Source: an uncultured Candidatus Saccharibacteria bacterium (GTDB lineage Bacteria; Patescibacteriota; Dojkabacteria; J137). Taken from it: DNA of 64,000 bases. Location: positions 226 through 64,225 of the forward strand of contig CAZWRA010000001.1 in NCBI GenBank assembly GCA_964635995.1, in the 5' to 3' direction. Within the stretch, counting starts at the first letter, position 1. Every line of letters begins with the position of its first letter. The position numbers were made by a program, and so were the translations under genes. Below are positions 20,725 to 60,682 of the stretch, piece by piece. The notes beneath the pieces are model-generated. The model did not search any database, was not told the DNA's origin, and was given only the letters and a program-made list of their open reading frames with translations.

Positions 20725-21201
20725 ATGTCAGAATCTGGTGAAATAATAGAACTGCAGGCTCTAAATCATCAAATAAATTTAAGAGCGATAAATGACTTTC
20801 TTAACGACGAAAGTAACTGGAGAGTCCTGAATTCACAAGAAGCAAGAAATTTAAGAGCAACAAGAGTTCAATTAGTTACCTTTTATAATGCATACGTAAT
20901 AAAAAGTAATAAGGCTAAATTTAAACTTGTATACTATCCTGAAGATGCAAAACGTAAAGATTAGAAGCGAATTATAAGAGTTTATGGAGCAATTGCTAAG
21001 ACAGCATTTGAAATGAACTATAGACTTTTTATTGAAGGTTATAAACCTACTGAGAAGATCCATTTGGAGGAAGATGAAGAATATGATGAAATACTTATGA
21101 GTGGGGATTTTGACACAGAACATCCTATGTATGAATTCTATGATGTTTTAGATGATGAAGAAGGCTTAGATGACGACTATGATGATATTAGAGAAGCGTA
21201 G
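20725..21201 (+). pseudogene. Small hypothetical gene apparently interrupted by an in-frame TAG (79-aa and 62-aa ORFs in the same frame, 16 stop-free codons between them); acidic C-terminal tail
   Basis: ORFs 20725..20964 and 21013..21201 share a frame. The intervening 48 nt encode KRIIRVYGAIAKTAFE with no stop. Alternatively these are two tiny independent genes. Confidence 0.3.
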
Positions 21202-23740
21202 GTAACCCTTCAAAATCAGGATTGTTTTTAATCTTCTCAATAGCATCTGCAAGCATTTCAATATAAAGAGCGTATCCAACTCCATTAATATGTCCACTCT
21301 GGCTTTCTCCTAAAATATTTCCAGCTCCTCTAATCTCTAAATCTTTCGAAGCAATTCTAAACCCAGCTCCAAGATCTTGATTATCTACAAGAGATTGTAA
21401 TCTTTCCATATAGAATTTTTGAGAAGCACTTTTCTCAGAATTAGCTTTAATTAAAGACATTAAGGCTTCCTGATTATCAGCATCAATACTGTCTAAAATC
21501 TTTTTACTTGGTTTAGGAGCCATTAAATAACAATATGCTTTAATTTCAGATCGACCGACACGACCTCTCATCTGATAAAGTTGAGACAGTCCAAATTTAT
21601 GAGCATCATGAATAATTATTGTATTTACATTCGGTAAATCTAATCCATTTTCTATAATACTTGTAGCTACTAATACATCAAACTTCTTATAATAAAAATC
21701 TGTAAATAGTTTATCTAGAGAATCAGGAGTCATTCTTCCATGAGCAAATTCAATTGAAACTTCTGGTAGTAAACTTTTTAATTTATTAGCAATTCCTGGA
21801 ATTGATTGAACTCTATTATGAACAAAATATACTTGTCCACCTCTTGAAACCTCCTTTTGAATTTCCTTTGCAGCTCTACTCCAATCTTCAAAAATAATTT
21901 CAGTTGCAACACCTTGTCTTCCTTTTGGAGGTGTAGAAATTATTGAAATATCTTGAATTGATGAAAGGGCTAGGCTTAGACTTCTTGGAATTGGTGTAGC
22001 ACTAACAGATAATACATGGACACCGTAATTAAGCTGTTTAATTTTCTCTTTTTGTTTTACTCCAAATTTTTGTTCTTCATCTACAACTAAAAGACCCAGA
22101 TCTTTAAACTTAATATCTGAACTTAAAAGTCTATGGGTTCCTATTACAATATCTACCTTCCTATCATTAATTTCATCTACAGTAGCTCTATTTTCTTTGA
22201 CAGAATTAAATCTTGAAAGCAATCTTATTTGAAATTTAGTATCTTTAAATCTTTCTTTAAAAACATCAAAGTGTTGAGAAGCAAGGATTGTTGTTGGGGC
22301 AAGTATTGCAACTTGCTTTTTACTCTCATTCATTTTAAAAGCAGCACGCATAATGACTTCAGTCTTTCCAAAACCAACGTCTCCAACAACAAGCCTATTC
22401 ATTGGAGTTTCTGATTCAAGATCTTTAATAACTTCATTAATTGATCTAATTTGATCTGGTGTTTCTTCGTATTGAAATTTATTAATAAACTTTTCATACT
22501 CTTTTGAATCTTTAGAATCAACTTTAAAAGCTTTTGAGACTTCTCTTTTTGCGTAATGTTTTATTAAAGTTTCTGCTGTTATTAAAGCGGTTTTTCTAGC
22601 CTTGTTCTTAACTTCTTTCCAATTCTTCTTTCCTAATTTTGTAAGTTTAGGAACATTTCCCTCATTCCCTAAATATTTTGCAATTTTATTAATCTGATCT
22701 ATCGGAACATAAAGCTCATCTTCTTCTGCAAATTTAATTAGTAAGTAGTCATTTGGAACATTATCTACAACCTGTTGTTCTAAACCTGAATAAATTCCAA
22801 TTCCATAATCCTCATGAACTATATAATCTCCTACAGAAACTTCACCTTCAAACTGCCTAAGAATATTTTGAAGTGTTTTTGAATTAATTCCAGACTCTGA
22901 GCGTTTTAGATCTATAACTCCGAAAAGCTCTCTATCAGTTAAAAGTACAATTTTATTTGAATTCGAAATAAATCCTGCAGGAAGTTTTTTTAATGATTCC
23001 TCAGAAACATGAAATTCATTTTTTTGAAACCTTAATGTAATGTCATCAACTTCTTCTTCAAAAACTTTTTTCCTAGAATTTGTTAATACTTTAAATCCAT
23101 TATTCTTATATTTACTTATCTCAGATTTAGCTACCTCAATATTAGAAAAGAAAAGAGGTCCGAAAACTAAATCTGTTTCAACTATTTCAATATTTCCGCT
23201 AAAGAATTCAGTTATTTTTCTATCTATTGTTTTATCTGAAAAAACAACCTTTTGAAGTTCACCTTTTCCTTCTTTAAAATCTAGTGATTCAAGTTCTCCT
23301 TTGTCTGAAGGTAGATAATCAGTAATTACAATATAATCGATCTCTTTTACCTTTTTATTAGTAAAATGATCATAAAGATTAATTTTCTCAATATCTTCTC
23401 CAAAGAATTCTAGTCTGACTGGAAAATCGTAACCTGGAAGCCAAACATCAATAATATCTCCTCTAACAGAAAACTCAAGCATTGAACTTACGCTATCTAC
23501 CTTTTTAAATTCAAGATTAACACCAACTTTAAATTCATCTATAACACCAATTGTATTAGTCTTACTATCTAGGTTTGTGATTCTATTTAATAAATCAGAG
23601 TATGTAATCTCATCTTTTTTAAGTAAAAAAGCATTTTGAACTGAATCAAAAAGCTCAGCAGAGAAACTTTTTGAATAAAAAGTTAATTTATCTGAGATAA
23701 ATAAAGGTTGTAGATGTCCAAGAGTTTTAACTATTTTCAA
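21188..23740 (-). CDS. mfd: Transcription-repair coupling factor (shortened N-terminus relative to E. coli Mfd)
   Basis: CarD/TRCF domain motif [17 protein letters not shown] followed by SF2 helicase motifs ([25 protein letters not shown]) and C-terminal TRCF domain. Confidence 0.85.
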
Positions 23741-23768
23741 TTTATTTTTTATGTTTAGAATTTGAATA

Positions 23769-26819: not shown

Positions 26820-26918
26820 TCATTATAACATTAAAACCTTTTTTCAACTGAGTATCACTATTACCTATTTATGATAAATTGGATTAATATAGAATTATTA
26901 ATATTTTTGTAAAATATC

Positions 26919-28993: not shown

Positions 28994-29734
28994 GTGCATT
29001 TTTAATAATAACAATTTCTGTTTTAAATTTTTTTTGCAGGATTTATACTTTCCGATCTTGTAGATACTCGTTATAAGTCGACTTGGAATTCTATTCTATA
29101 TGAAAATACTTTTAAAAATTCAATTGTTGGACTTGTAGCTGCATATGCATCTTTGCCCCTTTCACATTACTATCTTCTAGAAAATCACGATATTGTTTAT
29201 ACGCTTGCATTCTTGATTTCTAATATTATGTTACTGCTTTTAATATTTTCATCTTATTTTGATATTCAATATTTTAAAGTATTAAATGGATTAACTAAGT
29301 ACTCAATATTTTTTCTTATTGTATTAAATATTGGAGCATTATTTATCTTTACTAATCAAAACGACATATTACTATTTAATAATTTAGATTTTAGACCTCT
29401 AGATAATTTAGTTGCAGGTTTCTTTTCTTGGTTTGTAACATTAAGTATTGTTAAGCTTTCAAATGATAAGGGCATGGGTGAAGGAGATATTAGAATAGCT
29501 ACAATTATTGGTTTGTCTTTTGGAATCTCGAAGGTAATTTTAGCAATGTACATAGCTATTTTCAGTGCAATTTTATTTGGATTATTTGCAATGGTACAGA
29601 AACGTAATAATACATACTTAAGATTAAAACTGCCTTTTGTTCCATTTCTAGTTTTTGGAGCAGTTGTATCTCTCTATCTTACAATAAATGCAAATGATAT
29701 TTTCATTTTCATAGAGAATCTTCTATTCTCTTAA
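28994..29734 (+). CDS. pilD: Prepilin (type IV pilin leader) peptidase, A24 family; start uncertain (frame open back to a GTG at about 28994; ORF track ATG at 29153)
   Basis: C-terminal A24 motif GMGEGDIRIATIIGLSFG within a multi-TM protein. Convergent with the pilus gene cluster. Confidence 0.65.
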
Positions 29735-32478: not shown

Positions 32479-32927
32479 TATAAATTTATAACTCCTGAAG
32501 AGTTAATAATTAAATTTATTGAACTTGATCCGCTCGTTAGAACAATACTACCAGTTCCTACTGGTCTATAGTCTCCTTGATTAAATCTAAGTTCATTTCC
32601 TGTCGCATTAAATACAGCACTTTCTATACTTATTCCAAAAGGTAATTCTTTAACTTGAGTCTCAGTTGCACTAGCTAAATTATTTCCTGTAAAAAGTGTA
32701 TAACTTTCCTCAGCAAAAGATATTCCAAAAGATGAATCGTCAAGACCTGAATAAGCATTTTGTTGTTGAACAAATATATCTGAACTTATTCTTCTGGCTG
32801 TATTCGTTAGATCATTTCTTCTAAATTCGTTAGCTGCTACAGGAACAAACAAAAACCCAGCTAAAGAGACTATAGCCAAAACTAGAATAAGCTCAATTAT
32901 AGTAAACGCATTCTTCTTATCCGACAT
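32478..32927 (-). CDS. Minor type IV pilin
   Basis: Class III signal: KKNAFTIIELILVLAIVSLAGF (Phe+1, Glu+5). Confidence 0.7.
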   Translation of the reverse strand: MSDKKNAFTIIELILVLAIVSLAGFLFVPVAANEFRRNDLTNTARRISSDIFVQQQNAYSGLDDSSFGISFAEESYTLFTGNNLASATETQVKELPFGISIESAVFNATGNELRFNQGDYRPVGTGSIVLTSGSSSINLIINSSGVINL

Positions 32928-34060
32928 TAATACTTCCTGTTAACTGATAGATAGGTCCTACAATAATAATTGCTAGGAAACCAATCATTGCTCCAATAAA
33001 TACTAATAAAATTGGTTCTAATAATGTCGATAGATTGTTTGAAAGCTCTTCAACTTCTTCAGCATGATATTCATATAAATAACCTAAATTTTCTTCAAGA
33101 GTACCAGTACCTTCCCCCAACCTCAATCATTTTTATAAAGGAAGGAGGAAAATACTTTGGGTAGAAAAGTAGTGAGGATGCAACTGACTTTCCACTTTTT
33201 ACCTCATTTGCAACATCTTTTAAGGCTTTTTTATAGTAAGTGTTACTTACAGTGCCTGTTGCAATATCAAGAGCTGATACTAATGGAATCCCTGTTTCTA
33301 AAAGAATACTTAGTGTTCTTGCAAATGAAGCTAAGATGTTATGTTGTGTAAGTTTTTTAATTACAGGAAATTTTAATGAGAACCAGTCTTTAAACTTTTT
33401 TCCAGATTTTGATCTTAAGAACATAATAAAAAGAAAAATTGCTAATGCTAATCCTCCAGCTAGAAATAAAGCATTTGTACGTATAAATGCAGAAGCAGCA
33501 AGTATCCCTTTTGTTAAAGGTGGAATATTTTCAAAAGATGTAAAAAGCTCTTCAAGTTTTGGCAAAATTAAAAATATTACTCCAAGCATTTCAACAAAAG
33601 TCAGCATAAATACAATCGCAGGATAGATTAGAGCTCCTTGAACTTTTTTTTCCAAGAGTGTGTGCTTTCTTTAAATAATCAGAAAGAAAAAAAGGTTTTT
33701 CCCAAAGTGCCTTCCTGCTCACCAACAGAAATTACAGACATGATAATGTCTGAAAAAACTTTTGGATACTTTCTCATTGAATCAGACAAAGTCATTCCAT
33801 CACTAATCATGCCAGCAATTTCAATGTATTTTTTGAAAGTCTTTCGTCAGCAGTTTGTTCAGAAAGAGTAAGAACTGCATCATTCAAAGCAAGTCCAGAT
33901 CGTAACATAAGATATAGATTTCTTATTGAAACCAAAACTGCAAGTTTAGGTATACCACTAAAATAAATCTGTCCTCCTTTTTTCTTTTTTTGGGTAGTTT
34001 TCTCTCTTTAGCCATTATTCTTTTAATGCAGTTACTCTCATTAATTCAGATAATGAAATC
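32917..34060 (-). pseudogene. pilC: Type IV pilus / T2SS platform protein PilC/GspF, disrupted by at least two frameshifts (pieces 32917..33126, 33095..33655 and further fragments 33660..34060 in other frames)
   Basis: GspF-domain motifs in three different frames. They are …LETGIPLVSALDIATGT… …FPPSFIKMIEVGG, then LEPILLVFIGAMIGFLAIIIVGPIYQL, and upstream fragments …IRNLYLMLRSGLALNDAV… / ISDGMTLSDSMRKYPKVFSDIIMSVISVGEQEG. ORFs 33095..33655 and 32917..33126 overlap by 32 nt. Confidence 0.7.
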
Positions 34061-34065
34061 ACTCC

Positions 34066-35297
34066 TTATCTTAATTTCTCAACACCATCTTCAACAATTA
34101 ATTTAAGACCTTGTCTTCTTGCTTCGTTATAAATTTGATCAGTGTCAGCTCCAGCCATTATAATTTTTCTTATGCTTTCAGTAATTTCTAATACTTCATA
34201 AAGACCAATTCGGCCTTTGTATCCATTTTCTACAGATCCTTCAGGTACATTTGGTGCAAATAATTTTTCCCCAACTTTTAAATATGCAGCTAAGTCGGGT
34301 CTATATACTTTTAGTTCTTCATATTCTTCATTTGTTAACCTCACTTCCTTCTTTTATTGTTCGTCAATTTTTCTAGCTAAACGTTGCGCTATAACAACAT
34401 TTACTGTTGTTGCGAGTAAGTATGGTTCTACACTCATATCGATAAGTCTAGGAATTGTAGTTACAGCATCATTAGTGTGAATAGTAGATAGAACTAAGTG
34501 CCCTGTCATTGCGGCATTAGTTGCAATTTTAGCTGCCTCGGAATCTCGAATCTCTCCAATCATAATTACATTAGGATCCTGTGTCTTAGAATTGATCTCA
34601 GTCCGTTACTGAATGTTAAACCAGCCTTTTTGTTAACTTGAACGTGATTTATTCCATTAATTTCATATTCTACTAGATCTTCAACTGTAGTTATATTTAT
34701 ATCTCTAGAATTTATTGTTGTTAAAATTGCGTAAAGAGTTGTTGTTTTACCAGATCCTGTTGGACCTGAAGCAAAAATCGATCCATAAGGTTTTTTAAAT
34801 GCTTTTTTAACAATTTCATAATCTTTATCTCTTAGTCCTAAATCTTCAAGTTCAAATGATCTACCTTTTTGTGTTAAAAGTCGAATTATAACTTTCTCGC
34901 ATTTAGCTGTTGGAAGAATAGAAATTCTTGTATCTAACTTATCCTCAAAATCAAAAGCAATTCTTCCGTCTTGTGGCGCGAAATGTTCATCAGTTCGAAG
35001 CTTTGCATTAACTTTAATTTTAAATACTAATGTTTCTTCGTATCTTTTTTCTATTGTATAAAGGTCTTTTAAAATTCCATCTATTCTATATCGAACAACC
35101 ATATTATCTTCATGAGGTTCAAGATGGATATCAGAAGCACCTTTATTTAAAGCCGTTAAAACTATATCATTAAGCATTCCTGTTATACCTCTTTCCTTAC
35201 CATCCTGTTTCCCCTCTTCAATTAATGGTGCATCATCGGATTGTATTATCTCTTCTTCTTTTATAGATGTGTTTAATGACTTCTTGGCCATAATCAT
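34066..35297 (-). pseudogene. pilB: Type IV pilus assembly ATPase PilB/GspE split in three pieces (34566..35297, 34354..34563, 34066..34344) by one frameshift and one in-frame TAA
   Basis: Piece 1 ends …[18 protein letters not shown] but the -1 frame reads [14 protein letters not shown], joining Walker B. Walker A is GPTGSGKTTTLYA and the His box is [13 protein letters not shown]. Pieces 2 and 3 are in the same frame, separated by TAA (…ARKIDEQ*KKEVRLTNEEY…). C-terminal piece has GYKGRIGLYEVL. Confidence 0.8.
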
Positions 35298-37175: not shown

Positions 37176-37949
37176 ATGATACTGTTTCTTGATCTGCAAT
37201 TTCTGTCATATAATCTAAATATGAATGAACTTAATTCACATAATTTCGATGCTAAAACGACACTTTTTAGTGGGCAAACATTTTTGTGGAGTAGACAAGG
37301 TAATGATTTAATAGGTTCTTTTAAGAATAAGATCATTATTTTGAGTGAGAGAAGAAATAAATGGTATTGGCAAACCTATCCCAATAAGGATGATTTTGAC
37401 TTTGTTAAAAATTATTTAAACTTAGATTTCGATGGTCAGAAGTTTATTACAAGTACAAATGATGAACATATAAGAAGTTCTTTTTCTAAATACCCAGGTT
37501 TAAGAGTTTTAAAACAACCTTTTGAAGAAACTATTCTCTCATTTATTCTTGCTTCGAATAAGAATATAAAAGCTATAAGAAAAACCTTTAATTTTCTTAA
37601 AGGAAAACAGAATAGATATATAAAAGTTGATAATAAGAAATACTTTTTCTTCCCTTCAATAGAATTTATTAATGATGTAGATATTTCTGTTTTACAAGAA
37701 TCGGGAGCAGGATATAGAGTTAAATATTTAAAAGATCTAGCTAATAAATTCGAAACAATAAAAACAAAAGGAGATTTTTCAGAAATAGCTAATTCACTAA
37801 AAAAAGTTAATGGAATTGGAGATAAAATTGCAGATTGTATAATGACTTTTTCATTAGGATTTAATAATATAACTCCTATAAATAGATGGTCTGAGCGTAT
37901 AATTACAGAACTTTATAATGATTTTTACTTTGAAAAAGTACTCAGATAA
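37176..37949 (+). CDS. ogg: 8-oxoguanine DNA glycosylase, OGG1 family (HhH-GPD)
   Basis: Colinear similarity to OGG1 blocks: TLFSGQTFLWSR (cf. LPSGQSFRW), ETILSFILASNKNIKAIRKTFNFL (cf. [24 protein letters not shown]), SGAGYRVKYL (cf. LGLGYRARYV), VNGIGDKIADCIMTF (cf. LPGVGTKVADCICLM, catalytic Lys conserved). Confidence 0.75.
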   Translation: MILFLDLQFLSYNLNMNELNSHNFDAKTTLFSGQTFLWSRQGNDLIGSFKNKIIILSERRNKWYWQTYPNKDDFDFVKNYLNLDFDGQKFITSTNDEHIRSSFSKYPGLRVLKQPFEETILSFILASNKNIKAIRKTFNFLKGKQNRYIKVDNKKYFFFPSIEFINDVDISVLQESGAGYRVKYLKDLANKFETIKTKGDFSEIANSLKKVNGIGDKIADCIMTFSLGFNNITPINRWSERIITELYNDFYFEKVLR

Positions 37950-37972
37950 AAGAGATTGGTTTACAAATAAAT

Positions 37973-38341
37973 TTGGCGAGAATACTGCTTACGCTGGTCA
38001 ACTTTTATTTGAATATATTAGAAAATATAATCCTAACAATTATTAAGAGTATGGGATGGTTTAGAAAATCAGATTGTATAGATTTTTATAAGATTCACGA
38101 AAGATTAAATTCATCGTCATTACTAACTCTTTTATGGCTTGCACATTCAAACATAACATTTAAAACTCCTACTGACATATCTACAATTGTAGGATACATT
38201 ACTGAAAATATAATAGCTAAAAGAATAATTGATGGATATGTAACACAAGAAGAAGTTGATTTTTTAAGAAATGATCTCTTATTTAATCCAACATATATAT
38301 GGAATACACAAAAAAATGAAACTATTACTAATGAGATATAA
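37973..38341 (+). CDS. Hypothetical protein
   Basis: 122-aa ORF, no motif. Confidence 0.35.
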   Translation: MARILLTLVNFYLNILENIILTIIKSMGWFRKSDCIDFYKIHERLNSSSLLTLLWLAHSNITFKTPTDISTIVGYITENIIAKRIIDGYVTQEEVDFLRNDLLFNPTYIWNTQKNETITNEI

Positions 38342-39543: not shown

Positions 39544-39584
39544 ATTTTTTATTCTTTAATATCTTCTGAATATTCTCTTAGATT

Positions 39585-40793
39585 TTAATACTTTTTTCCA
39601 ACTAAATTTTTAGGCATATACTCCTGTTCTACTTTCTTTCCATTTTTCTCCTCTAGCCAAGGATATCTCGTATGTCCTTTTCCATACCCATGCTCTTTCA
39701 TTACTTTATTTGGAGCATTTCTAAGATGAAGTGGAATTGGATCAAGAGGTTTATTATGAATATCGCTGATTGCATTACTTATGCCTTCAGTTACAGCAAT
39801 TGATTTAGGACAAGAAGCTAAGTAAGTAGCGCATTGAGCTAAGATTAATTTTGCTTCAGGCATACCGATCATATTAACAGCTTGCATTGTTGAGGTAGCT
39901 ACAACTAAAGCAGTAGGTTTTGCATTTCCGATGTCTTCAGAAGCAAATATAACCATTCTTCTTGCAATAAAAACTGGATCTTCTCCTGCTTCAATCATTC
40001 AAGAAAGATAATGAAGAGTAGCATCTGCTTTTCCTCCTCTCATTGATTTAATAAAGGCAGAAATAGTGTCGTAATGTGCATCTCCCTTTTTATCGTATAC
40101 ACCAAATTTTTGTTGAAGAATATCTGAAACAATCTCTCGAGTTATTTTTTTATTGATTTTAGAAGCGAATTCTAAAGCATTAATAATTTTTCTTGCGTCT
40201 CCGTCTGCAAATGCAATTAAAAACTCTATCGCATCCTCATCCCATTTAATCTTTTTTATCTCTTTATTTGCTCGATTAAAAACTTCTAAGCATTCTTCAT
40301 CGCTTAACTTTTCAAATCTAAATACTCGACTTCTTGAAATTAAAGGAGCATTAATTTCAAAACCGGGATTTTCGGTTGTTGCTCCAATTAAAATTATAGT
40401 TCCGTTCTCAACATAGGGAAGAAATGCATCCTGTTGAGCTTTATTAAATCTATGAATTTCATCTACAAATAATACTGTTTCTCTAGCTTCTTCAATTTTT
40501 CTATGTTCAGCTAACTTTACAATCTCTCTAACTTCTTTTATTCCTCCAGTTACAGCTGAAAATGAAACAAAGTGTGCTTCTGTATAGTTTGGAATTAATC
40601 TGGCTAAAGTAATTTTTCCACATCCTGGAGGTCCCCAAAAAATCATTGAAGAGATATTACCTGATTCAATAATTTTACGAAGAGGTTTGTTCTTTCCTAG
40701 AATATGTTTTTGACCAATGAATTCATCAAGATTCGTCGGCCTTAGACTTTCCGTTATCATCCTTCTTTCTACCTGATGTAAAAAGCGTAACAA
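39585..40793 (-). pseudogene. rarA: Replication-associated recombination protein A (RarA/MgsA AAA+ ATPase) interrupted by an in-frame TGA at 39999..40001; probable true start MITESLRP at about 40760
   Basis: N-terminal ORF has Walker A GPPGCGKITLARLI, Walker B VLFVDEIHRFNK, sensor motifs. The downstream ORF is contiguous and in-frame and encodes the MgsA_C domain (MIEAGEDPVFIARRM…PKSIAV…HLRNAPNKVMKEHGYGKGH). TGA aligns with a conserved Arg (…HYLS*MIEAGEDP vs …YLARMIEAGEDP). Confidence 0.8.
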
Positions 40794-40931
40794 GATCTTC
40801 AGGTTTTTTTGAAATTATTGATCTAAAGAAACCCATGAACTCATTATACTGCAGTCTATCTAAATACCTAAATACATAATTTAACATTGGGTCTGTATAG
40901 TTCTCTCCAGTCTCGACTCTAACTGTATTTC

Positions 40932-41594
40932 CTAATAAATCTTCTTTGAGCTTCGTCCAGTCTTTTGGTGTTTTTTATACCTTGGTACTCCTTTTTCTTC
41001 AAACTCAAAAAACTTTGTCTTACATGCTAACAAACCAATTATATCTAGAACATAATTACTAACATGTATTAATGGTAATGCCTGTTCTTCTGGACTACTT
41101 TGAGTTCTTAGTTGTTGTGAAATATAAAACCCTCTCGCAAGTTTAAACATAACAGGAAACGGTTTTAAATTCTCTACTTCAGCCCTCATTAAAACGACAC
41201 CTGTAATTCTTCTTTCATTAAAAATCTTTTTATCAAGCTCTCCTGTTGTTGAACCTCCAAAGAATATTCTAATTCTATGTGGATTATCTATGTCTGAGCT
41301 AAAACCAATGCTTGAAAATAGCTCAAGAAGATCATATGTACAAGATACTAGGTAAGCGGAAAATCTTTCGAGTTCAACTTCAGAAGTTGATCTATAAAAT
41401 GATGCAACTTGTTCAAATTTATCAATAACAGATTGATCTATTTCAACCCTAATTCCTAACCCATGTCCTTTAGAATCTAAGATAACTTTCTTGTCCTCTA
41501 AAAGAGCATTAACAGGATCCCTGTTAACTGCAGCAATTTCGACAGTTTCTCTTACTAAATCATTATCATCTGGGGGTTTAAGATCTGACATCAA
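40932..41594 (-). CDS. Hypothetical protein (220 aa); C-terminus may be truncated by a homopolymer (A6) frameshift, since an 80-codon stop-free continuation exists in the +1 frame
   Basis: No motif recognised. Downstream region 40794..40930 translates without stops in the +1 frame (…KDWTKLKEDLLGNTVRVETGENYTDPMLNYVFRYLDRLQYNEF…). Confidence 0.4.
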   Translation of the reverse strand: MMSDLKPPDDNDLVRETVEIAAVNRDPVNALLEDKKVILDSKGHGLGIRVEIDQSVIDKFEQVASFYRSTSEVELERFSAYLVSCTYDLLELFSSIGFSSDIDNPHRIRIFFGGSTTGELDKKIFNERRITGVVLMRAEVENLKPFPVMFKLARGFYISQQLRTQSSPEEQALPLIHVSNYVLDIIGLLACKTKFFEFEEKGVPRYKKHQKTGRSSKKIY

Positions 41595-41804
41595 AAAATA
41601 GCATCAATAATATTACATAGAGCACTGCAATATATTTTGAAAGTGTGATTTTGTCAAATTCTATCTAGTGTGAAAGTAGTTTTCCCATTATCAGCATTGG
41701 ATTACAAGCGACAATATGAGCAACAAATTCTAAAAGCTCTTCATTTTTAATATTATAAAAGAAACTTATAACTAAAGCATTTGAGTGAACTTAATTTGAA
41801 AAAA

Positions 41805-43971: not shown

Positions 43972-45291
43972 TTAAATTAAAGAAACTGAATGAACAATTT
44001 CATTTGTATAGGAGTTTCTTAGAACTGCGTTATCTCCTTCAACACTTAATTCTACTCCTGTGAAGTAGCTTGGCATTTGGATAAATGACAATGTTTCTGT
44101 AGCTACATCAAAGATTATTAACTGAGCATTAAGGTCCGTTGTTCCACAATCACCGCAAGTTGTTTGATCAAATACTAATAAATTATTTCTAGCAGTGTCA
44201 TGAACCCAAGTCTGTTCTTCATTAGGTAATCCAAAAGGATATCCATAAGTAAATGGAGTAGCAGAAGAATAAACTGTCTCCTCAACTAAATCTGTTACAT
44301 TTACCTTAGTTACTCTATCAGAGTAAAGACTATATATACTATCTCCAATTTTTGAAGCTGCTAAAGCGTCACCTCCTTTCTGAGTAAGAGTTACAAAATC
44401 GCCTGTGCTTTTCTGGAAAGAAACTTCTCCTGTAGTTTAATTGTATTCTATGAAATTAATATCTCTATTAAGTTCTGCAGCAGTATCTAACCAATTATAG
44501 TACTCATCAAATGATCCGAATCTATACTTAACTTAAAAATTGTTTGTAGCTGGATTGTATTCAACTAAAATGTTTTGATCGTTATTATTTCTATATGTAA
44601 ATCTTAATCTTCCAGTTTCGTTTGAAATGAAGAAATCAAACATATCCATTCTGCTTTCTGATTCAGGGAATGTATTTAATGTATATGAATACCAGCTTTG
44701 TGATGATTCAATCCATCTAACTAATCCACCTGTTGTATATGCATTTGAGTTAATTCTTCCCCAAAGTTCTCCATTAGCAACAAATAAATCAACATCTACT
44801 CCTGTACTTACAGCTAAAACAGACTCCCATCCTCGAACTGAACCTGTAGCTAAATCAATCCTTGCTACTCCATCGAATGAATCTACCCAAAGATCACCGT
44901 TAAAGTAAACAAAGCTAATGTTTGAAGTTCCTGGGAACCCCATAGATTGAGTCCAAGTATTAACTATTTGTCCAGATTGCAAATCAAGTTCTAAAATATC
45001 ATATTCACCAGGAAACTGACTCTCTCTTGCTTCATCAGTACAAATTGTAAACATAGAATCGTTAACAATAATGAACTCTTGTTGTCCTCCTCCGCAACCA
45101 TCTGGAATTAATAGACTTCTTGCTACTAAATCTCCATTAGGATTAAAAACCATAATTACTGAAGGATTTACAGTTTTAATGAATAAATGATCTGCATAAA
45201 CTTGTGCGCTTAATGGGTATGTTAAATCTGTATTGTCAGTTAATGTATATTCAAAATTAGTATCAAAATATCTATCATCAATAGTTGTTAC
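43972..45291 (-). pseudogene. C-terminal beta-rich (propeller-like) portion of a large secreted protein gene continuous in frame with the DUF5648 repeat gene upstream, interrupted by three in-frame TAA codons (about 45292, about 44533, about 44437)
   Basis: Manual translation shows one reading frame open from 45894 to 43972 except three TAA. The last 158-codon segment (TTGEVSFQKSTGDFVTLTQKGG…NEIVHSVSLI) has no start codon of its own. ORF-track piece 44533..45153 is the middle segment. Confidence 0.5.
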
Positions 45292-45894
45292 TTATTCAAA
45301 AGAAGACATAAAAACATTGTTATTTTCAAAAGCATTTAAGTTTAGTACTTTAGGAAATACGTAAAAAACTATTCCTTCATACTCGTATATAGAAGATAAA
45401 TCTCCCTCAATATAATCTTTTTCAGGCACATCTACAGTAAATACATGGGCTTGTCTAATATTACTCCAGAATTGAAATACAGGAACTGAGCTTTGTGAAG
45501 ATTGTGTAGTCTCTGCACAATAAGCTACTGCCTCATAATCCCAATTAGGATTTGTGTCTTCAATATATTCTTTCTCAGCTTCAGAAGGTGTATAGAAATG
45601 AACTTCTTTAGAAGGATTATAGAATCTATAAACTTCTGTTCCATTACTACAAGATCCATCGAATTTGTAAGCTTCTAATACAATCCCTTCGTAATTCCAG
45701 TTTGGATTAGTATTTTTAACGTATTCTGCCTCAGCTGAATCAGCAGTATAGAAGTGCGCTAGGGAGACGGGGCTATAAAATCTATAAATAGGGGTTGTTG
45801 CTTCTTGCGCATTAACTTTATTAATCCCTAAAACAATTGTTAAGAAAAGAAAGGATAGGGAGACTATTATCGAAAACAAAAACATCTTTTTCAT
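45292..45894 (-). CDS. Secreted protein with three DUF5648-type repeats (YRFYNP…HFYT…E…NWxYEGI)
   Basis: Signal peptide MKKMFLFSIIVSLSFLFLTIVLGINKVNA. Three repeats resembling the clostridial cell-wall-protein DUF5648 motif (RLYNPnsGeHFYT…GWkYEGia). Confidence 0.65.
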   Translation of the reverse strand: MKKMFLFSIIVSLSFLFLTIVLGINKVNAQEATTPIYRFYSPVSLAHFYTADSAEAEYVKNTNPNWNYEGIVLEAYKFDGSCSNGTEVYRFYNPSKEVHFYTPSEAEKEYIEDTNPNWDYEAVAYCAETTQSSQSSVPVFQFWSNIRQAHVFTVDVPEKDYIEGDLSSIYEYEGIVFYVFPKVLNLNAFENNNVFMSSFE

Positions 45895-46083: not shown

Positions 46084-46097
46084 TTACTAAAAGTTTA

Positions 46098-46436
46098 TGC
46101 AAAAAGAAGTTTTCATAAAAGCAAAGAAAATTATTAATAATCCAGACATTATTATTGATATGTTTACTTCAACATTTGAATGGATAAGCCCAAATGCACT
46201 TGATATATTTAAATATGAGTAAAGTGAGATTATAGGAAAAAAGCGACAACTTTAGTAACTGCAGAATTAGATGAAGCTATAAAGATACTGTTAGATTTAA
46301 TAAAGTCAAAAAAAGGAACTAGAGAGATAGAATTTGTAGATGGCTTAGGTCATAAAATAAGAATTAATGCTGATTTTCAAGTTTTAACTTTTAATAAAGT
46401 TCCCTATCTTATTGCTAAAATCATTTCAATAAAATA
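46098..46436 (+). pseudogene. PAS-domain protein remnant (in-frame TAA plus a frameshift at an A6 run)
   Basis: MQKEVFIKAKKIINNPDIIIDMFTSTFEWISPNALDIFKYE*SEIIGKK then +2 frame ATTLVTAELDEAIKILLDLIKSKKGTREIEFVDGLGHKIRINADFQVLTFNKVPYLIAKI, a PAS-like fold pattern. Confidence 0.5.
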
Positions 46437-46452: not shown

Positions 46453-47438
46453 ATGAAAGTTAAGCTTAAAGAATTAGAGTCAATCACACTAAACGCTGTA
46501 AAGAAGTATTGGTATAAGGATAATGAGGCTGAAATAATCAAAAAAGTCTTACTTTATGCTCAGTTAAGAGGTAATAATCAAGGCATAGTAAAGTTGATTG
46601 GAAATGGTATTCCAAGAATTGAAACGGGAAAAGAACCTACTATTGAGAAAGAAACTAAAGTCTCAGCTTTACTAAATATGGAAATTATACTCATGCTATG
46701 GTTGTTATGGATAAATTAGTAGATATAGCAACTAAGAAAGCAATTGAAATAGGAGTAGGAATTGCAGGGAACCACGATACAAGTGAGTCAACTGGAGCAC
46801 TAGGATATTACGTTAATAAAATTGCAGAACAAGGCTTAATCGGAATTGCATTTGCATCTGCACCGTTTCAAACAAACGCCCCTTTTGGAGCAAACGAGGC
46901 AAGATTTTGTACAAATCCACTAGCTTTCGGAATTCCCACTGAGTCTGATCCAATAATTTTAGATATGCCCACTTCAGCTATGGCTTATTATGGATTAATT
47001 GAGGCTAAGACTGCAGGGAAAAAACTTTCTGACAAAGTAGGATTCGATAAAAATGGTAATGAAACTAATGACCCTGCAGAAATAATGTCTGGAGCGCTAA
47101 AAACATTTGGAGGACATAAAGGTTCAGGACTCGCTTTAATTGTCCAAATTTTAGCAGGAGCTTTTGTTAAAGCGGACTCATTTAATAATGATAGTGACAA
47201 CGCTGGTAATCTAGTCGTTCCTATTGATCCAGAGATATTTTTAAGCAAAGACGATTTTAGGAAAAGTGTTACAGAAATAATTAATAAGGTTAAATCCGCA
47301 AGAAGAATAGATAATGTTGAAGAGATTTTTATTCCTGGAGAACGAGGAAATAATTTTCAAAATGAAGTTGTTACTTCAGGCGAAATTGAGATTGAAGATA
47401 ACTTATGGACTGAATTACAAAAAGTTGTTAATTCTTAA
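46453..47438 (+). pseudogene. Ldh_2 family (malate/L-lactate/sulfolactate-type) dehydrogenase split by a frameshift near 46700
   Basis: C-terminal ORF has the Ldh_2 hallmark GGHKGSGLALIVQILAG. N-terminal ORF (46453..46719) supplies the N-terminal domain. ORF2 frame read back gives …NGNYTHAMVVMDKLVD, overlapping ORF1. Confidence 0.7.
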
Positions 47439-48736: not shown

Positions 48737-49558
48737 ATGAATGACCATAGATTTAATCATTCTGAAGATGATATACAACCAATATCACAAAGAGAAAGAA
48801 TTGATAACTATGTCTCTAAAGGTCTTGTACCTCCTTCAGATATACGACTACTCTATCAATTAAATCAAGGACAGTATACATATTATGGAGCGGAAGGACA
48901 TAGAAGCGAAGTTATTCAAAGACTGACAAGAGATTTAGTCCATACTATGAACGTAGCTATGCGATGGACAGTAGAAAGAGGGGTGACATGGGAGAATGCA
49001 ATGTCAGCAAGTCTTATTTTTGGTCCAGCATTTACTGATGATTTTAAAGAAATTATTCCTTTAGTTCTTAATGCATACGAAGGTTCTACAGTAAATTTTC
49101 TTACACATGTTCATTTAGTTGCAGGCGGTTATGCAGCACAAGCAGCAGAACTTGCATTAGAGAATTTAAGGTCAGTAGGATTTCGTTATAATATGATTTC
49201 TGATGATTATTATTTAACTATAATTCGGGAATTAGGATTAGTAAGTTCTCAAAATAATAAATTAAATAAGGTATTAAAAGGATTAAGTTTCAACTCAGAT
49301 CCAAATGTATTTGCTGCTGAGGCTTTAATCCGACTTGAATCTAAATACATTATTCAGGATTTCAGAAGAATGGTTACGAAGGAAGGAGGTTACGTTTACT
49401 GTCCTGCCTCAACTGTTATGAGAAATGTTGCTTTATTAACTGTTTATAACATGTACCTATATAAAAAAGATAAATCTATAATAAAGTTAAGTAAAAACCT
49501 TCTTGTTGAAAAAGATATACTCGTACTTAAAGACTTATTTTTAAGCAGTATTACTTGA
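48737..49558 (+). CDS. Hypothetical protein (273 aa), convergent with the small-gene cassette
   Basis: No recognisable motif. Locally higher GC codon usage (Ala/Gly-rich). Confidence 0.4.
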   Translation: MNDHRFNHSEDDIQPISQRERIDNYVSKGLVPPSDIRLLYQLNQGQYTYYGAEGHRSEVIQRLTRDLVHTMNVAMRWTVERGVTWENAMSASLIFGPAFTDDFKEIIPLVLNAYEGSTVNFLTHVHLVAGGYAAQAAELALENLRSVGFRYNMISDDYYLTIIRELGLVSSQNNKLNKVLKGLSFNSDPNVFAAEALIRLESKYIIQDFRRMVTKEGGYVYCPASTVMRNVALLTVYNMYLYKKDKSIIKLSKNLLVEKDILVLKDLFLSSIT

Positions 49559-49786
49559 CTCTTTCAATTCTTCTAAAATTTTCTCGTATTGAGTAATTTT
49601 TTCCCTTACACCTTCAATAGTTTGACTAAAGGAGAAATGATCATTTTCAGTTTCACCATCATCTTCCTTACTGAGTCTACTCTTTGGAATGGTCATCCAT
49701 CCCAATGGAAAGTCTTGATCAAACTCAGAACCTAACTGTTCTAATAATCTCTCATAACCTTGTAGTCTAAGATGTGTAAGTTGCAA
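49541..49786 (-). CDS. Small protein paralogous to the 91-aa ORF at 50323..50598; in-frame with the upstream 167-aa ORF across a TGA
   Basis: MQLTHLRLQGYERLLEQLGSEFDQDFP vs ELTIQGFEKLLELLGEDFDISIP. TTG start. ORF 49796..50299 ends TGA, then three codons ENK, then this ORF in the same frame. Confidence 0.35.
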   Translation of the reverse strand: MQLTHLRLQGYERLLEQLGSEFDQDFPLGWMTIPKSRLSKEDDGETENDHFSFSQTIEGVREKITQYEKILEELKESSNTA

Positions 49787-49795
49787 CTTATTTTC

Positions 49796-50299
49796 TCAAT
49801 CTAAAATCCTAGCCTCTGTTATAAAATTTGGAGGAAGATTTCCATTTCTTTGTTTTTCCAGAACCGTTTCAATTGAGAGAGGAAGATTTACAGAGATATT
49901 TCTAAATTCATTCAAAAGAGCATTATAAGCCGAATATGATTGAGATGCGTGAGAGCCATCCGAAGGAATTGTTGCAAATATATTTCTTAGGCTTTCAGCT
50001 AATCTATCGGTTGAGGTAAGTAAGGCACTTTTCACTTTCCCTTTTTTCTCATCTACAAAAAGAGTAAAATCTTCAGGATTAAATAAATTTAGTTCCGGAT
50101 TAGTAGTTCTAAAAAAAAGTTTAGTATGTGTTGAAGATAAATAAACTGTGCCATCGTCCAGCATAGTTCCTACTTTTCCTAATACTCCCTGTTCATTATC
50201 ATATGTATAAACCCTGTCTCGAGGTATTTCTATAGTTGCATCTCCAAATCTAACTGTTAAATCATCTGTTGATAATCGTTTGTCTACTAAATCCGTCAT
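49796..50299 (-). CDS. Hypothetical protein (167 aa)
   Basis: No motif. C-terminal …NEFRNISVNLP resembles the N-terminal region of the 91-aa paralogue (…SAFRNDLEYY). Confidence 0.4.
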   Translation of the reverse strand: MTDLVDKRLSTDDLTVRFGDATIEIPRDRVYTYDNEQGVLGKVGTMLDDGTVYLSSTHTKLFFRTTNPELNLFNPEDFTLFVDEKKGKVKSALLTSTDRLAESLRNIFATIPSDGSHASQSYSAYNALLNEFRNISVNLPLSIETVLEKQRNGNLPPNFITEARILD

Positions 50300-50322
50300 A
50301 TTGAAATTATAAAAAATAATTT

Positions 50323-50598
50323 TTATGTCTTTGTAAATTGATTAATTAAATCTTCCGATTCTGTAAGCATATTTTTGTATATTTCAAAATCCTCTCTTAA
50401 ATTTCTAACTAAATCTTTAAATGGTTCAGCTTTTAATGTTTCAGGTATACTGATGTCAAAATCTTCTCCAAGTAATTCTAAAAGTTTTTCAAATCCTTGT
50501 ATTGTTAGTTCATAATATTCTAGATCGTTACGAAAAGCACTAATTGCTTCAGGAGTAATCTTTGCAGGTAGAGTGAACGTTGGGTCTGCTTCTTTCAT
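50323..50598 (-). CDS. Small hypothetical protein (91 aa), paralogue of 49541..49786
   Basis: Shared motif L-x2-(I/L)QG(F/Y)E(K/R)LLE-LG-x-(D/E)FD. Confidence 0.4.
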   Translation of the reverse strand: MKEADPTFTLPAKITPEAISAFRNDLEYYELTIQGFEKLLELLGEDFDISIPETLKAEPFKDLVRNLREDFEIYKNMLTESEDLINQFTKT

Positions 50599-50662
50599 TT
50601 TTAGTCTTCCATGATATGCGTGTAATAGTCCGCTATAAATAGGACCATAAAAGTTTCTAAGT

Positions 50663-51040
50663 TCAGCAACTATATTTTATATATGTGATAACCAGGCATA
50701 TCAATTCTAATTCTTCGTTAAACAAAGGGCTGATCTGTTCTGCGAGTATTTCAACGTCTACTGATAATGCTAAGGATTTTTCACCGGATGGTGTTATCAT
50801 AAGAATGAAATCACTACTAGTAAATGATTTTGCTAATCTTTCTATTGAACTTGTATCCATATCTTGTGATCCTAACATTGACATAGTATGAGAATTAGCA
50901 AGATTTATAAGCGTCCCACCTTTTGCTATAGTTCTTTCCCTAAAAATCTGGAATTGATCTGTAGTAGGATTAGTAACTTGATAAATATCTTCTTGATGAA
51001 TTTGATCATATATTCCTTCGATACCTGTTTCATTTACCAT
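50663..51040 (-). CDS. Hypothetical protein (125 aa), weak resemblance to Roadblock/LC7-type domains
   Basis: Size and alternating hydrophobic pattern only. Low confidence. Confidence 0.35.
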   Translation of the reverse strand: MVNETGIEGIYDQIHQEDIYQVTNPTTDQFQIFRERTIAKGGTLINLANSHTMSMLGSQDMDTSSIERLAKSFTSSDFILMITPSGEKSLALSVDVEILAEQISPLFNEELELICLVITYIKYSC

Positions 51041-51075
51041 TTTAGAATATTATAATTTAACTAATTATATAATTT

Positions 51076-54481: not shown

Positions 54482-54522
54482 GATTACTACCTTTCAGACA
54501 GATATTTATGTAAACTAAAAGT

Positions 54523-55776: not shown

Positions 55777-55916
55777 TAGTAAATACTCAAATCATAAATT
55801 TAATAAGTTTATTCATTTGTTTAATCATTATCTATCTATATTTATAGTAGAGACTCTATTTAAAATATAATTTATACTCCCAATTCTAGAGCAGAAATAA
55901 GTTCGTTAGTATAAAA

Positions 55917-58900: not shown

Positions 58901-59510
58901 TAGAGAAAAAATAGAATGGGAAAAAGAGTTAATGGGTGTATTTGTCTCAACACATCCTTTACAGAATTTTATTTGGGCACCACTACTAGAAAATCTTTCA
59001 AAAACTTCAGATATCGAAAAACTTAGAACAGGGGATAAAGTAAAGTTACTTGGAATGTTTAGCAATATTAAAGTTTTAAGAACTAAGGCTAAGAACGAAC
59101 AAATGGCTATACTTCTTATCGAAGATCTTGAACAAACTTGCAGTGCTGTTATCTTTCCAAAAATTTTTAAAACTTTAAACGATCTTAGACTTGTTGTTGA
59201 AGCAAGACCTTTTATTATTGAAGGCACTGTAAATGAAAGAGATGAAGAAAAAACGATAATTATTGATAAGATAGAGCCTGCCAATATTTTAATTCCTCCA
59301 AAGAAAGTTGAGCTAGATTTAAGGGATTTTAAAGAAAAAGAAAAGTTATTAGAGTTAAAAGAATGCTTTGAGAGAACATCTACTGGTGATAATAGTATTA
59401 ATGTAATGATAAAGTATGGATCGAAAAACAATGTAAAAGTTTTGGAGCGATCAATAAACTTTAATGACGAAAAGTCAGTGGCTATTGTTTCTAAATTTAT
59501 TTCTCGTTAA
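55917..59510 (+). CDS. dnaE: DNA polymerase III alpha subunit (probable start at MADFVHLHVHT, 55938)
   Basis: PHP domain FVHLHVHTQYSLLDG, polymerase core and C-terminal OB region. About 1190 aa. Confidence 0.95.
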   Translation: MSINNFHMADFVHLHVHTQYSLLDGLNRTEKLFEKVKNSGMEAVAITDHGVLYGAPEFWKMSKDFDVKPIIGCEMYLAPTDMTLRSDVDGIRYYHLLLIAKNDIGYKNLIKLVTKSHIDGMYYKPRIDLDLLKKHSEGLICTSACLAGPLSRYIVRGEYDKAEWWLKELHGTFKDDFYLEIQRNGIRCEDEIDKALIAKLPISEQEDQLETLKQQVKVNKKLYDYSKQFNIPIVATTDAHFLDADDKDTQKILFCIRDGKSLDDPSAMNGYVETYIKTPEELKKDFSDIPEVLEETLKINEKIEKINLKPDRVQPHYWNLPENSTARDELSKQVYEGAYNKYTTDDPKKDPSTFSIDEIKKHLPEEIKKQLDYELMVIEKMGYNNYFLVVGDLMQFARKNEIVVGVRGSAAGSLVSYCLGITNVEPLKWGLVFERFLNLERASPPDIDMDIQDDRREELIDYAREKYGETSVAGIITFGKLATKAAIRDVARVMNIDLATADKLSKKVIVLFGKPFTFEKMMGEDPEFKEMVDSDPRLQRLGEVVKKIEGLNRHTGVHAAGYLITPGPIDEFMAYQKDLKDPDLLVTQMDGTWIDKLDFMKFDFLGLRTLTIIKDCILYVEKRHGIKIDLENINVDPDEPPENYDQKAFEVFRNGETIGVFQFESPPMQRYLVDLKPTTMTDICFMAAAYRPGPMAYIPDYIKIKNGDKEANYLIPELEPILKATLGFPVYQEQLLQICMQLGGFTLGEGDVIRNALKKKQLDILKEKEEDFKKYFVENYSQYGEEIASEIWKQLEPFASYGFNKAHAASYAAVAYWCAYLKGNYPLEFMTALMHADIENTDRIVIDIGEAKRLGYKVLPPNINMSDVYFNPEGKDGIRFGLGAIKNVGKKLCEKIIRERNQRGEFKHFDDFVYRVGSKNINKRAVECLIKAGALDDFGDRNALLKICSEVFEKISAKEKAKEVGQAGLFSVESEHDGLEQVDKTPFPSFTDATDREKIEWEKELMGVFVSTHPLQNFIWAPLLENLSKTSDIEKLRTGDKVKLLGMFSNIKVLRTKAKNEQMAILLIEDLEQTCSAVIFPKIFKTLNDLRLVVEARPFIIEGTVNERDEEKTIIIDKIEPANILIPPKKVELDLRDFKEKEKLLELKECFERTSTGDNSINVMIKYGSKNNVKVLERSINFNDEKSVAIVSKFISR

Positions 59511-59752
59511 TTTTTGCCTTTATTAAAAGAATTACAATTTCATCTTTCTTACTAGGAATATCTTGCCAGACACACTTTAATCCCGAGAAGTCTGCTTTAT
59601 TCTTAACTTCTTTCGTTTTTATCTGGTACTTAGGATAGTTTTTACAAGAAACTCAGCGTGATCTAAACCCCCTCAATGAAAAACCGCTTGGAAGTAATTA
59701 TTTGTAACTTTTAGTTTTACTATTTTAATTTTATGACGACTTCTTAAAATGT

Positions 59753-60136
59753 CTATAACTGGAACAAATCCAATTCTAAGATGAATGTTAAAATTTTTTC
59801 TGAGAATTTTTGTGTATCTCTTAAAACATCGCAAGCTTTATCAACATATTCAGGAGGAATAAGTATTGTCGACCCATCTCCACCAAAAACAAAAGGAAAT
59901 TCAATATTTTTATCAATATTCAAAACAGCAGTCGTTGCACAAGAGGCTACAAAATTTACATCATGATATCTTCCTTCATCAATAGCAATAGTGGAGCCTT
60001 TTACATCTGAGACTACAACAAACCAGTCAACAGGAGCATCCCTGAAAAGACGTTCGTTCGTTATATCTTTAAACTCTTCCACATAAGGAAGATCGTTGTA
60101 GAAATACGTACTTTTCACAATTTTTAATGTCACCAA
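59753..60136 (-). CDS. Truncated nucleotidyl-cyclase-like (DUF3095-like) N-terminal fragment; downstream 240 bp contains further coding-like pieces in other frames
   Basis: FVVVSDVKGSTIAIDEGRYHDVNFV … FPFVFGGDGSTILIP resembles the class III cyclase-like fold core. ORF only 127 aa. Stop-free stretches in other frames to 59520 (e.g. …LKCVWQDIPSKKDEIVILLI). Confidence 0.3.
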   Translation of the reverse strand: MVTLKIVKSTYFYNDLPYVEEFKDITNERLFRDAPVDWFVVVSDVKGSTIAIDEGRYHDVNFVASCATTAVLNIDKNIEFPFVFGGDGSTILIPPEYVDKACDVLRDTQKFSEKILTFILELDLFQL

Positions 60137-60233
60137 AATTTTACAACAATATCAGTATATCAGCGACTGTCAATAATGGCCAGCAGCAATATCAGAATAT
60201 GCTCTAAATTAATTATTCAGTTGGGGAATATTC

Positions 60234-60682
60234 TCAGATAGATTTTTCTAATTTTCTAACTCTTTTTTGAAGCTTATTGTATTCCCTTAAACCTGCAAAA
60301 GAGTATCTAAAATATACAGACAGGAGCATTAATATAAGTGAGATAATTATTATGAATAATCTAAAAATGGAAGATAGAAGTACTACAAATGAAGGATAAA
60401 GTCTTGACTCAAAATCTTCATCTTCTTCTCGATCATTATTAAATATATCTTCAATTGAATCAACAATATCATCAGGAATGGTGCCAATAGTAGTTAGAGT
60501 GTTATCAGTATATTGAAGTTGTCTTCCAAAAAATTTTCTTCAAATAGATTGTCTGTAAATGAAGAATAAATCTGAGGGATAAAAATAGCTGAAATAATTC
60601 CAGCTAAACCTACAAAGAATAAAAAAGTTATTATTGTTTGCGATGCTACAATAACTTTTCTATAAAAAAGAAAAGCAAACAT
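60234..60682 (-). pseudogene. Small membrane protein gene split by a frameshift at an A6/T6 run (62-aa N-terminal ORF + about 95-aa C-terminal piece in +1 frame)
   Basis: N-piece MFAFLFYRKVIVASQTIITFLFFVGLAGIISAIFIPQIYSSF…; C-piece …TIGTIPDDIVDSIEDIFNNDREEDEDFESRLYPSFVVLLSSIFRLFIIIISLILMLLSVYF…KLEKSI*. Confidence 0.4.

Follow-up and report, generated by a model that had tools for sequence, protein, structure and literature searches.

Probable recent pseudogenes clustered among intact genes in a 64-kb stretch of a Dojkabacteria genome

Broken and intact genes of the window

The window analyzed here is a 64,000-nucleotide (nt) stretch of contig CAZWRA010000001.1 (positions 226 to 64,225 of the forward strand; assembly GCA_964635995.1) from an uncultured bacterium of the Dojkabacteria. 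It carries interrupted genes, including the type IV pilus genes pilB and pilC and the DNA-repair genes ogg and rarA, among ordinary chromosomal genes such as pheS, ychF, mfd, uvrA, and those for an AddA-type helicase-nuclease and an inorganic pyrophosphatase. Pfam also recognizes a UmuC-like polymerase, a UmuD/S24-like peptidase, and an RND transporter. The guanine-plus-cytosine (GC) content is ~31% throughout, and three tRNA genes, all ordinary, are present with no further Rfam feature. Nine genes are broken on the evidence of homology: pilB, pilC, ogg, rarA, a hypothetical gene with a 290-amino-acid (aa) orthologue, a DUF5648/propeller gene, a PAS-like gene, an Ldh_2 gene, and a DUF3095 gene (Table 1). 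Three more candidates, the 79/62-aa pair, the 167/81-aa pair, and a small membrane gene, are recognized by frame continuity alone, with one lesion each. In all, 9-12 of the ~63 genes (14-19%) are broken, and pseudogene DNA amounts to 10.7 kb, or 16.7% of the window. It is very probable that these are genuine and recent pseudogenes, about a dozen in number.

The window sequence was traced by exact look-ups to run SRR10095374. This run (‘Cool_Sed_1’) is a metagenome of 19 °C sediment from a study of the Liard River thermal swamp, in which Nextera XT libraries were read on an Illumina NextSeq 550 and MegaHit was used for co-assembly; the bins listed there include one of Dojkabacteria (order B142) with 1.146 Mb and 31.6% GC (PMC8027834). 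Exact look-ups of the 243-aa pilB fragment, the 186-aa pilC fragment, and a 613-aa minor pilin returned no record, and their start codons were probably called differently. When PilB was repaired and used as a query, its best full-length matches were from Candidatus Dojkabacteria (WS6), which belongs to the Patescibacteria, or candidate phyla radiation (CPR); the closest two showed 83% and 80% identity. The window’s own 241-aa fragment was also retrieved, recorded both on an NCBI contig of 65,342 bp and in Logan. A scan of a genome collection returned one genome, GCA_964437465.1, and not that of the window itself; this is a genome whose PilB likewise groups with Dojkabacteria. Its contig CAYTGI010000001.1 (loci L004 and L006) is collinear with the window from 23.7 to 59.5 kb and is referred to below as the relative. 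Amino-acid identity between the two is 55-85%, and silent sites are saturated.

Genes were considered broken on the basis of Pfam profile coverage, an intact syntenic relative, or distant full-length homologues, with the Pfam scan covering ~50 open reading frames (ORFs) or fragments of the window. In all nine homology-supported genes, consecutive parts of one profile or orthologue lie on adjacent ORFs. Pfam coordinates show this for pilB, pilC, rarA, Ldh_2, and DUF3095, and tblastn with the relative’s proteins shows it for ogg, the 290-aa gene, the PAS-like gene, and again pilC. The relative carries unbroken orthologues at the syntenic position and in the same order, namely PilB (420 aa), PilC (428 aa), RarA (397 aa), Ogg (274 aa), and the 290-aa protein, as well as intact PAS-like genes of 113 and 116 aa. 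Together, the nine genes hold ~20 lesions supported by homology. Five of these are in pilC, and pilB, the propeller gene, and the DUF3095 gene have three each. Constraint seems to have been relaxed beyond the first lesion, as indicated by the multiple lesions and by substitutions at otherwise conserved positions of rarA and pilB.

Table 1. Putative and candidate pseudogenes of the window, their lesions, and the contigs of an independent (Logan) assembly of the same run that agree with them.
Gene	Position	Strand	Lesions	Logan contig
79/62-aa ORF pair (candidate pseudogene)	20725..21201	+	159 codons in one frame; TAG 20962-20964	L010, identical
pilC (T2SSF platform protein; putative pseudogene by Pfam and tblastn)	32917..34015	-	At least five 1-nt frameshifts, in runs A7/A6 33973-33994, A6 33826-33839, A5/T7 33682-33703, A8 33640-33653, and G5 33110-33121	L002, identical down to 33434 (four upstream sites, not G5)
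pilB (T2SSE ATPase; putative pseudogene by Pfam and alignment)	34015..35297	-	CA tandem duplication 34574-34586; TAA 34354-34356; TAA 34066-34068	L002, same three fragments
ogg (8-oxoguanine glycosylase, OGG_N)	37176..38046	+	1-nt frameshift in T5/A5 stretch 37920-37938	L002, identical
rarA/mgsA (putative pseudogene)	39558..40793	-	TGA 39999-40001; Walker A change; early TAA 39585-39587	L003, identical
Hypothetical gene (‘220-aa gene’)	40729..41594	-	1-nt frameshift in A6 run 40967-40979	
Secreted DUF5648 + propeller-like gene	43972..45894	-	641 codons in one frame; TAA 45292-45294, 44533-44535, and 44437-44439	L007, identical
PAS-like remnant	46097..46410	+	TAA 46220-46222; frameshift in A6 run 46235-46245	
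Ldh_2 (malate/L-lactate dehydrogenase family)	46453..47438	+	One frameshift near 46669-46719	L008, same two ORFs
167/81-aa ORF pair (candidate pseudogene)	49541..50299	-	One frame; TGA 49796-49798	L009, identical
DUF3095 remnant, beside 3' end of dnaE	59660..60136	-	Frameshift ~59,790 (A6); TGA ~59,673; 3' deletion	
Small membrane gene (candidate)	60234..60682	-	Likely frameshift in A4T6 stretch 60523-60541	

The most heavily damaged genes belong to the pilus operon. In pilC, the Pfam family T2SSF matches four separate ORF pieces, and the relative’s protein matches in three frames. The pilB gene is split over three ORFs, which carry positions 8-211, 216-283, and 295-358 of T2SSE; intact orthologues of 420 aa and 424 aa occur in L004 and L005. 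Its duplication changes AGACAGGATCC, found in both relatives, into AGACACAGGATCC in the window. The first TAA takes the place of a Tyr in the relatives, and the second, close to the C-terminus (…EKLR*GVISLSELMRVTALKE), that of Ala or Glu. In addition, Gly has been replaced by Cys and Pro by Leu at columns that are invariant in six homologues. The number of private substitutions in pilB is not elevated (seven, compared with 2-8 in five closer homologues), but they are of a more radical kind. Judged by its reading frames, the pilus operon of the window appears to have lost both its assembly ATPase and its platform protein.

Other parts of the pilus system were also compared with the relative. 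Downstream of pilB and pilC, the genes for minor pilins remain intact. There is one major pilin gene (35362-35823, minus strand) where the relative has two tandem paralogues (L004 8904-9934) that are 74-79% identical to it. The reading frame of the prepilin peptidase gene (Peptidase_A24, 29030-29734, plus strand) opens directly after a stop codon and offers no possible start before a TTG at 29153. Similarity to the relative already sets in upstream of this codon, at 29030. Either loss of the start or use of a non-canonical one may account for this. An apparent pseudogene in the relative’s own A24 peptidase was rejected, given that its split is a 10-N scaffold gap (L004 16,245-16,255).

Two broken genes have roles in DNA repair. 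The ogg gene matches Pfam OGG_N, and the relative’s protein aligns with it through residues 1-234 in frame +3 and residues 229-272 in frame +1. The rarA gene reads through in one frame with a single TGA and aligns to the relative’s intact protein. One ORF carries its AAA and AAA_assoc_2 domains, and the next carries positions 14-147 of MgsA_C. The TGA replaces a conserved Arg (AGG in the relative), the Walker A motif has changed from GKT to GKI (ACT to ATT), and the terminal TAA falls on a Tyr codon (TAT) 13 codons before the relative’s stop. On these grounds, ogg and rarA are predicted to be dead. Genes of repair and recombination are therefore among those broken, and the repair-type genes that stay intact are uvrA, mfd, and those for the AddA-like helicase-nuclease, the UmuC-like polymerase, and the S24 peptidase.

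The hypothetical gene next to rarA is matched by tblastn with its 290-aa orthologue in two frames (residues 1-214 in frame -3, residues 211-290 in frame -2). A 297-aa gene of the relative is absent from the window. At its place there is a 210-bp gap (41595-41804), in which a weak match (E = 0.09) to the last 24 residues of the relative’s 297-aa protein was found. This suggests that the gap is the remnant of a deletion of that gene.

The pieces of the DUF5648/propeller gene are considered to form one gene because P0242 (506 aa) and P0243 (523 aa), homologues of full length, can each be aligned without a break across both downstream TAA codons. One of these codons aligns with Trp. The first TAA is probably also a true lesion: homology begins 13 codons past it, at residue 14, and no start codon occurs until residue 47. 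A search with the whole gene gave matches to the DUF5648 domain only, and an exhaustive HMMER search of representative proteins was needed to recover the full-length homologues. In the PAS-like gene, which the relative’s 113-aa and 116-aa proteins match by tblastn in two frames, the TAA replaces a Glu (GAG in the relative’s paralogue). Ldh_2 has profile positions 1-77 on an 88-aa ORF and 85-333 on a 246-aa ORF. The DUF3095 gene is reduced to a composite of profile positions 1-157 of 378, with 1-105 on a 127-aa ORF and 96-156 in a second frame; the 3' two-thirds (158-378) are gone.

No syntenic orthologue was found in the relative for the three candidates identified from frame continuity. In the case of the 79/62-aa pair, the shared frame and 16 open codons are estimated to be expected by chance about once in ten, and neither Pfam nor the second metagenome scan revealed a homologue. 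No homologue of the 167/81-aa pair was found with Pfam, with tblastn against phages, in viral contigs, or in the first metagenome scan. A concatenated query of both pairs and the propeller C-terminus against 5.8 billion proteins retrieved nothing, not even the window’s own fragments. The membrane gene consists of a 62-aa ORF followed by ~100 open codons in another frame that lacks a start codon; it matched no Pfam family, Pfam being the only search made.

Two further observations concern the wider window. The 167/81-aa pair is part of a block (49541-51040) that also contains a 91-aa ORF and a 125-aa ORF. This block is missing from the relative, has no homologues in the collections searched, and sits between the UmuC-like gene with its 273-aa neighbor and the UmuD/S24-like gene. 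At 5394-8435 on the plus strand, a 1013-aa surface protein with DUF11 and cysteine-rich repeats is encoded at a local GC content of 38%, compared with 31% for the window.

The original prediction, which was made from the sequence and its ORFs, counted at least eight in-frame stops and about seven frameshifts in the window. Every lesion that it listed is physically present. The total was nevertheless an undercount, as were the ‘at least two’ frameshifts given for pilC. The TAA and the frameshift of the PAS-like gene both exist, though the TAA was placed at 46130-46170 and lies downstream of there. A frameshift had been thought possible at the C-terminus of the 220-aa gene, and tblastn with the relative’s orthologue confirms it. 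Overlooked were the second TAA of pilB, the ogg frameshift, the Walker A change and early stop of rarA, the DUF3095 remnant, and the absence of the 297-aa gene. It had also been stated that long genes such as uvrA, dnaE, and mfd stay open. This is so, and their lengths agree with those of the relative’s orthologues. For dnaE the earlier label was adopted (1197-aa ORF, 55917-59510), and a 1183-aa orthologue in the relative matches it end to end.

Reality, clustering and types of the lesions

The lesions are real and clustered. Seven contigs of the Logan assembly, which was produced independently from SRR10095374, match 29.4 kb of the window with 100% identity and no gaps. They include the lesions in the 79/62-aa pair, pilC (four sites), pilB, ogg, rarA, the 290-aa gene, the propeller gene, Ldh_2, and the 167/81-aa pair. 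The G5 run of pilC, the PAS-like sites, the DUF3095 remnant, and the membrane gene are outside these contigs. Contig ends fall at ~23.76, 30.49, 33.43, 38.42, 39.48, 44.12, 46.19, 47.70, and 51.65 kb, with overlaps of 23 and 29 nt at two junctions. One of the breaks (46176-46202) is just upstream of the PAS-like TAA. At such breaks the assembly graph may branch, owing to strain variants or low coverage.

Clustering was assessed by spreading 20 lesions in proportion to length over 60.7 kb of genes. Whereas ~16 genes are expected to be hit at random, 11 were observed (P = 0.0035); with verified lesions only, the numbers are 14 and eight (P = 0.0002). Eight long intact genes, totaling 21.6 kb, would be spared by chance with P ~1e-4. 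Likewise, pilC holds five of the nine homopolymer frameshifts but only 17 of the 530 runs (P = 4e-6). The original claim that the disruptions exceed expectation is supported by the relative, whose syntenic 42 kb contain two frameshifts and no in-frame stop. One of these frameshifts is in a DHH-family gene (L006 ~10,340-10,360, not in a homopolymer) and the other is in the A6 run of a ring-cleaving dioxygenase gene (~3,930-3,945).

The frameshifts comprise both insertions and deletions, and nine of the 11 verified ones are in A, T, or G runs of 5-8 nt. At least eight lesions are base substitutions that create stop codons. Those supported by homology are TAA or TGA, and the sole TAG is in the 79/62-aa candidate pair. 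It had been proposed that the stops arose mostly by C-to-T changes (CGA to TGA, CAA to TAA). This is not supported: the stops that can be called replace Tyr, Tyr, Glu, Ala/Glu, Arg (AGG), and Trp and are mostly transversions, and no case of the CAA-to-TAA route could be shown. For example, the first TAA of pilB (from TAC or TAT) and the early rarA stop are transversions, and the PAS-like TAA is a G-to-T change. AGA is ~8 times commoner than CGA in the window, so a CGA-to-TGA origin of the rarA stop should not be assumed by default. Disabling lesions are numerous relative to substitutions, and this high ratio suggests that no other mutational process in this lineage is as fast as homopolymer slippage.

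All three stop codons terminate intact genes of the window (TAA 39, TAG nine, TGA six), and the TGA- and TAG-ended genes that have an orthologue in the relative agree with it in length. An alternative genetic code, such as code 25 or 4, was rejected on this basis and because homologues have Tyr, Arg, Glu, Ala, or Trp opposite the in-frame stops. Suppressor tRNAs in the window were rejected as well, given the three ordinary tRNAs and the lack of any other Rfam match. Loci that are phase-variable or rescued by slippage would be expected to have one long tract per gene. By contrast, the five shifted runs of pilC measure 5-8 nt, and stops occur besides the frameshifts in pilB and the PAS-like gene. 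A single homopolymer shift is found in each of ogg and the 290-aa gene.

Three other explanations were weighed against genuine pseudogenes. It is very improbable that the lesions are sequencing or assembly artefacts, that is, homopolymer miscalls and consensus errors in a low-coverage, AT-rich metagenome-assembled genome (MAG) of an organism whose genes are intact in the cell. The concentration of frameshifts in short runs is in keeping with this explanation, as are the shortness of the Logan contigs (1.5-6.7 kb), which suggests modest coverage, and the A6 frameshift in a long gene of the relative’s MAG. However, the data are from Illumina sequencing, two different assemblers agree over the matched 29.4 kb, and neither the stop substitutions nor the CA duplication are homopolymer errors. 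Furthermore, five of the 17 pilC runs are shifted, compared with none in the 21.6 kb of long genes, and the broken genes also carry radical substitutions at invariant residues. Somewhat less improbable, though still rather unlikely, is that the lesions are real but unfixed, in which case a decaying (possibly mutator) sub-lineage or a strain-mosaic consensus would coexist with intact alleles. The nine breaks between Logan contigs, when read as graph branch points, possibly reflect strain variants, and the broken state of ogg and rarA would also fit. Nevertheless, the nearest pilB among 5.8 billion proteins, the window’s own fragment aside, is 83% identical, leaving no close intact allele, and each fragment protein looked up occurs in one sample only.

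Expression of the genes by recoding, whether through readthrough or reassignment of stops, programmed frameshifting, or transcriptional slippage on A/T runs, is scarcely credible. Frameshifts do occur in A/T runs, where slippage of RNA polymerase can restore the frame, and the frames are otherwise open. Yet each of the three stops ends normal genes, the runs are short, pilC would need five corrections, and pilB would need one frameshift and two readthroughs. The Walker A motif of rarA would be dead in any case, the tRNAs of the window are ordinary, and the lesions are absent from the relative. The mixture of lesion types within genes, their clustering, their identity in the independent assembly, and the unbroken orthologues of the syntenic relative thus favor genuine recent pseudogenes over a general problem of quality, as originally proposed.

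Some points weigh against genuine pseudogenes. The Logan contigs were built from the reads of the same run and hence rule out mistakes of the assembler, though not systematic ones in the reads. In ogg, the 290-aa gene, and the membrane gene, each with a single homopolymer shift, the lesion could individually be a consensus error. The A6 frameshift of the relative is in an otherwise intact gene and could mean that AT-rich MAGs of this sort carry assembly errors at a low background rate. Three of the 12 genes have no homologues. Finally, intact paralogues of pilB, pilC, or the repair genes may exist elsewhere in a genome of which 64 kb are visible.

Age, cause and comparison with known systems

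If the genes are genuine pseudogenes, their decay is likely to be young. The fragments are as close to the relative as the intact neighbors (pilB 83% and rarA 80%, compared with 82% for both uvrA and dnaE) and are still in frame, the private substitutions of pilB are not elevated, and little has been deleted. Selection on the affected genes would have been lost or have become ineffective. Disabling mutations would then have accumulated neutrally, as 1-nt slippage indels in runs of 5-8 nt, one dinucleotide duplication, and point changes to TAA or TGA. Such a process would leave some genes with 3-5 lesions and neighboring essential genes with none. A small population size, a lifestyle change, or a mutator background could be the cause. 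The context may be genome-wide reductive evolution, a mutator clone in which ogg and rarA are dead, or the local loss of a dispensable pilus operon.

The original prediction favored reductive evolution in a host-associated or symbiotic organism and regarded the losses as accessory functions. The latter description is only partly apt, given that ogg and rarA are DNA-repair genes and that pilB and pilC encode the type IV pilus motor and its platform. Neither a lowered coding density nor eroded intergenic regions are evident, as gene space including pseudogenes makes up 94.8% of the window and the largest gap is 476 bp. There is also no AT shift, with 31.0% GC in the window, 32.1-32.2% in GCA_964437465.1, and 32.1-33.0% across relatives. 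No transposase domain was detected in the ~50 ORFs scanned with Pfam, the remaining ORFs not having been scanned and no repeat search having been made. CPR bacteria are thought to be symbiotic anyway, and so the inference of host association adds little.

A bolder proposal is that a CPR lineage has entered an active second wave of decay, with the pilus motor and platform, ogg, and rarA lost and with a mutator background of G:C>T:A transversions and homopolymer slippage driving rapid pseudogenization. We consider this unlikely; if true, it would mark a lifestyle change or a dead-end clone. The type IV pilus is held to be central to the epibiotic lifestyle of CPR bacteria.

Genuine pseudogenes in these numbers would provide a rare natural snapshot of ongoing gene loss in the CPR, with 14-19% of genes freshly broken within 64 kb. 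Among the casualties are two repair genes as well as the ATPase and platform of pilus assembly. If the pattern is genome-wide, it could show which functions are dispensable to a CPR cell. The window also illustrates an annotation hazard: gene callers split these loci into at least 25 small ‘hypothetical’ ORFs, resulting in inflated gene counts and spurious families.

RNA polymerase slippage that restores the frame at A/T runs is known from Buchnera and Blochmannia. The window resembles these systems in its 1-nt indels in A/T homopolymers and in its AT-rich, small genome. It differs in that the tracts are short, occur several to a gene, are accompanied by nonsense codons, and are not conserved in the relative; here they are known from sequence alone. 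Parallels are also found in the pseudogene-rich genomes of early reduction, such as Mycobacterium leprae, Sodalis glossinidius, and lineages of Francisella and Shigella. As in these, frameshifts and nonsense codons have inactivated many genes but not the essential ones, lesions are multiple in some genes, repair genes are among the casualties, and the pseudogenes are recognizable and undeleted. Unlike in these, only 64 kb are seen, coding space is not lowered, GC is unshifted, transposases are absent from the ~50 scanned ORFs, and the CPR host genome is already small (a bin of ~1.1 Mb).

Compared with its own group, the window is typical in its low GC, small genome, and type IV pilus operon with pseudopilins, and its gene content and order match those of another Dojkabacteria-like MAG. 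CPR genomes are reported to have a high coding density, which has been read as a sign of few pseudogenes (PMC9166423). In contrast to typical CPR bacteria, ~17% of the window is pseudogene DNA, whereas the relative has its two frameshifts in 42 kb. Gene decay of this kind is itself textbook; its density is atypical for the CPR.

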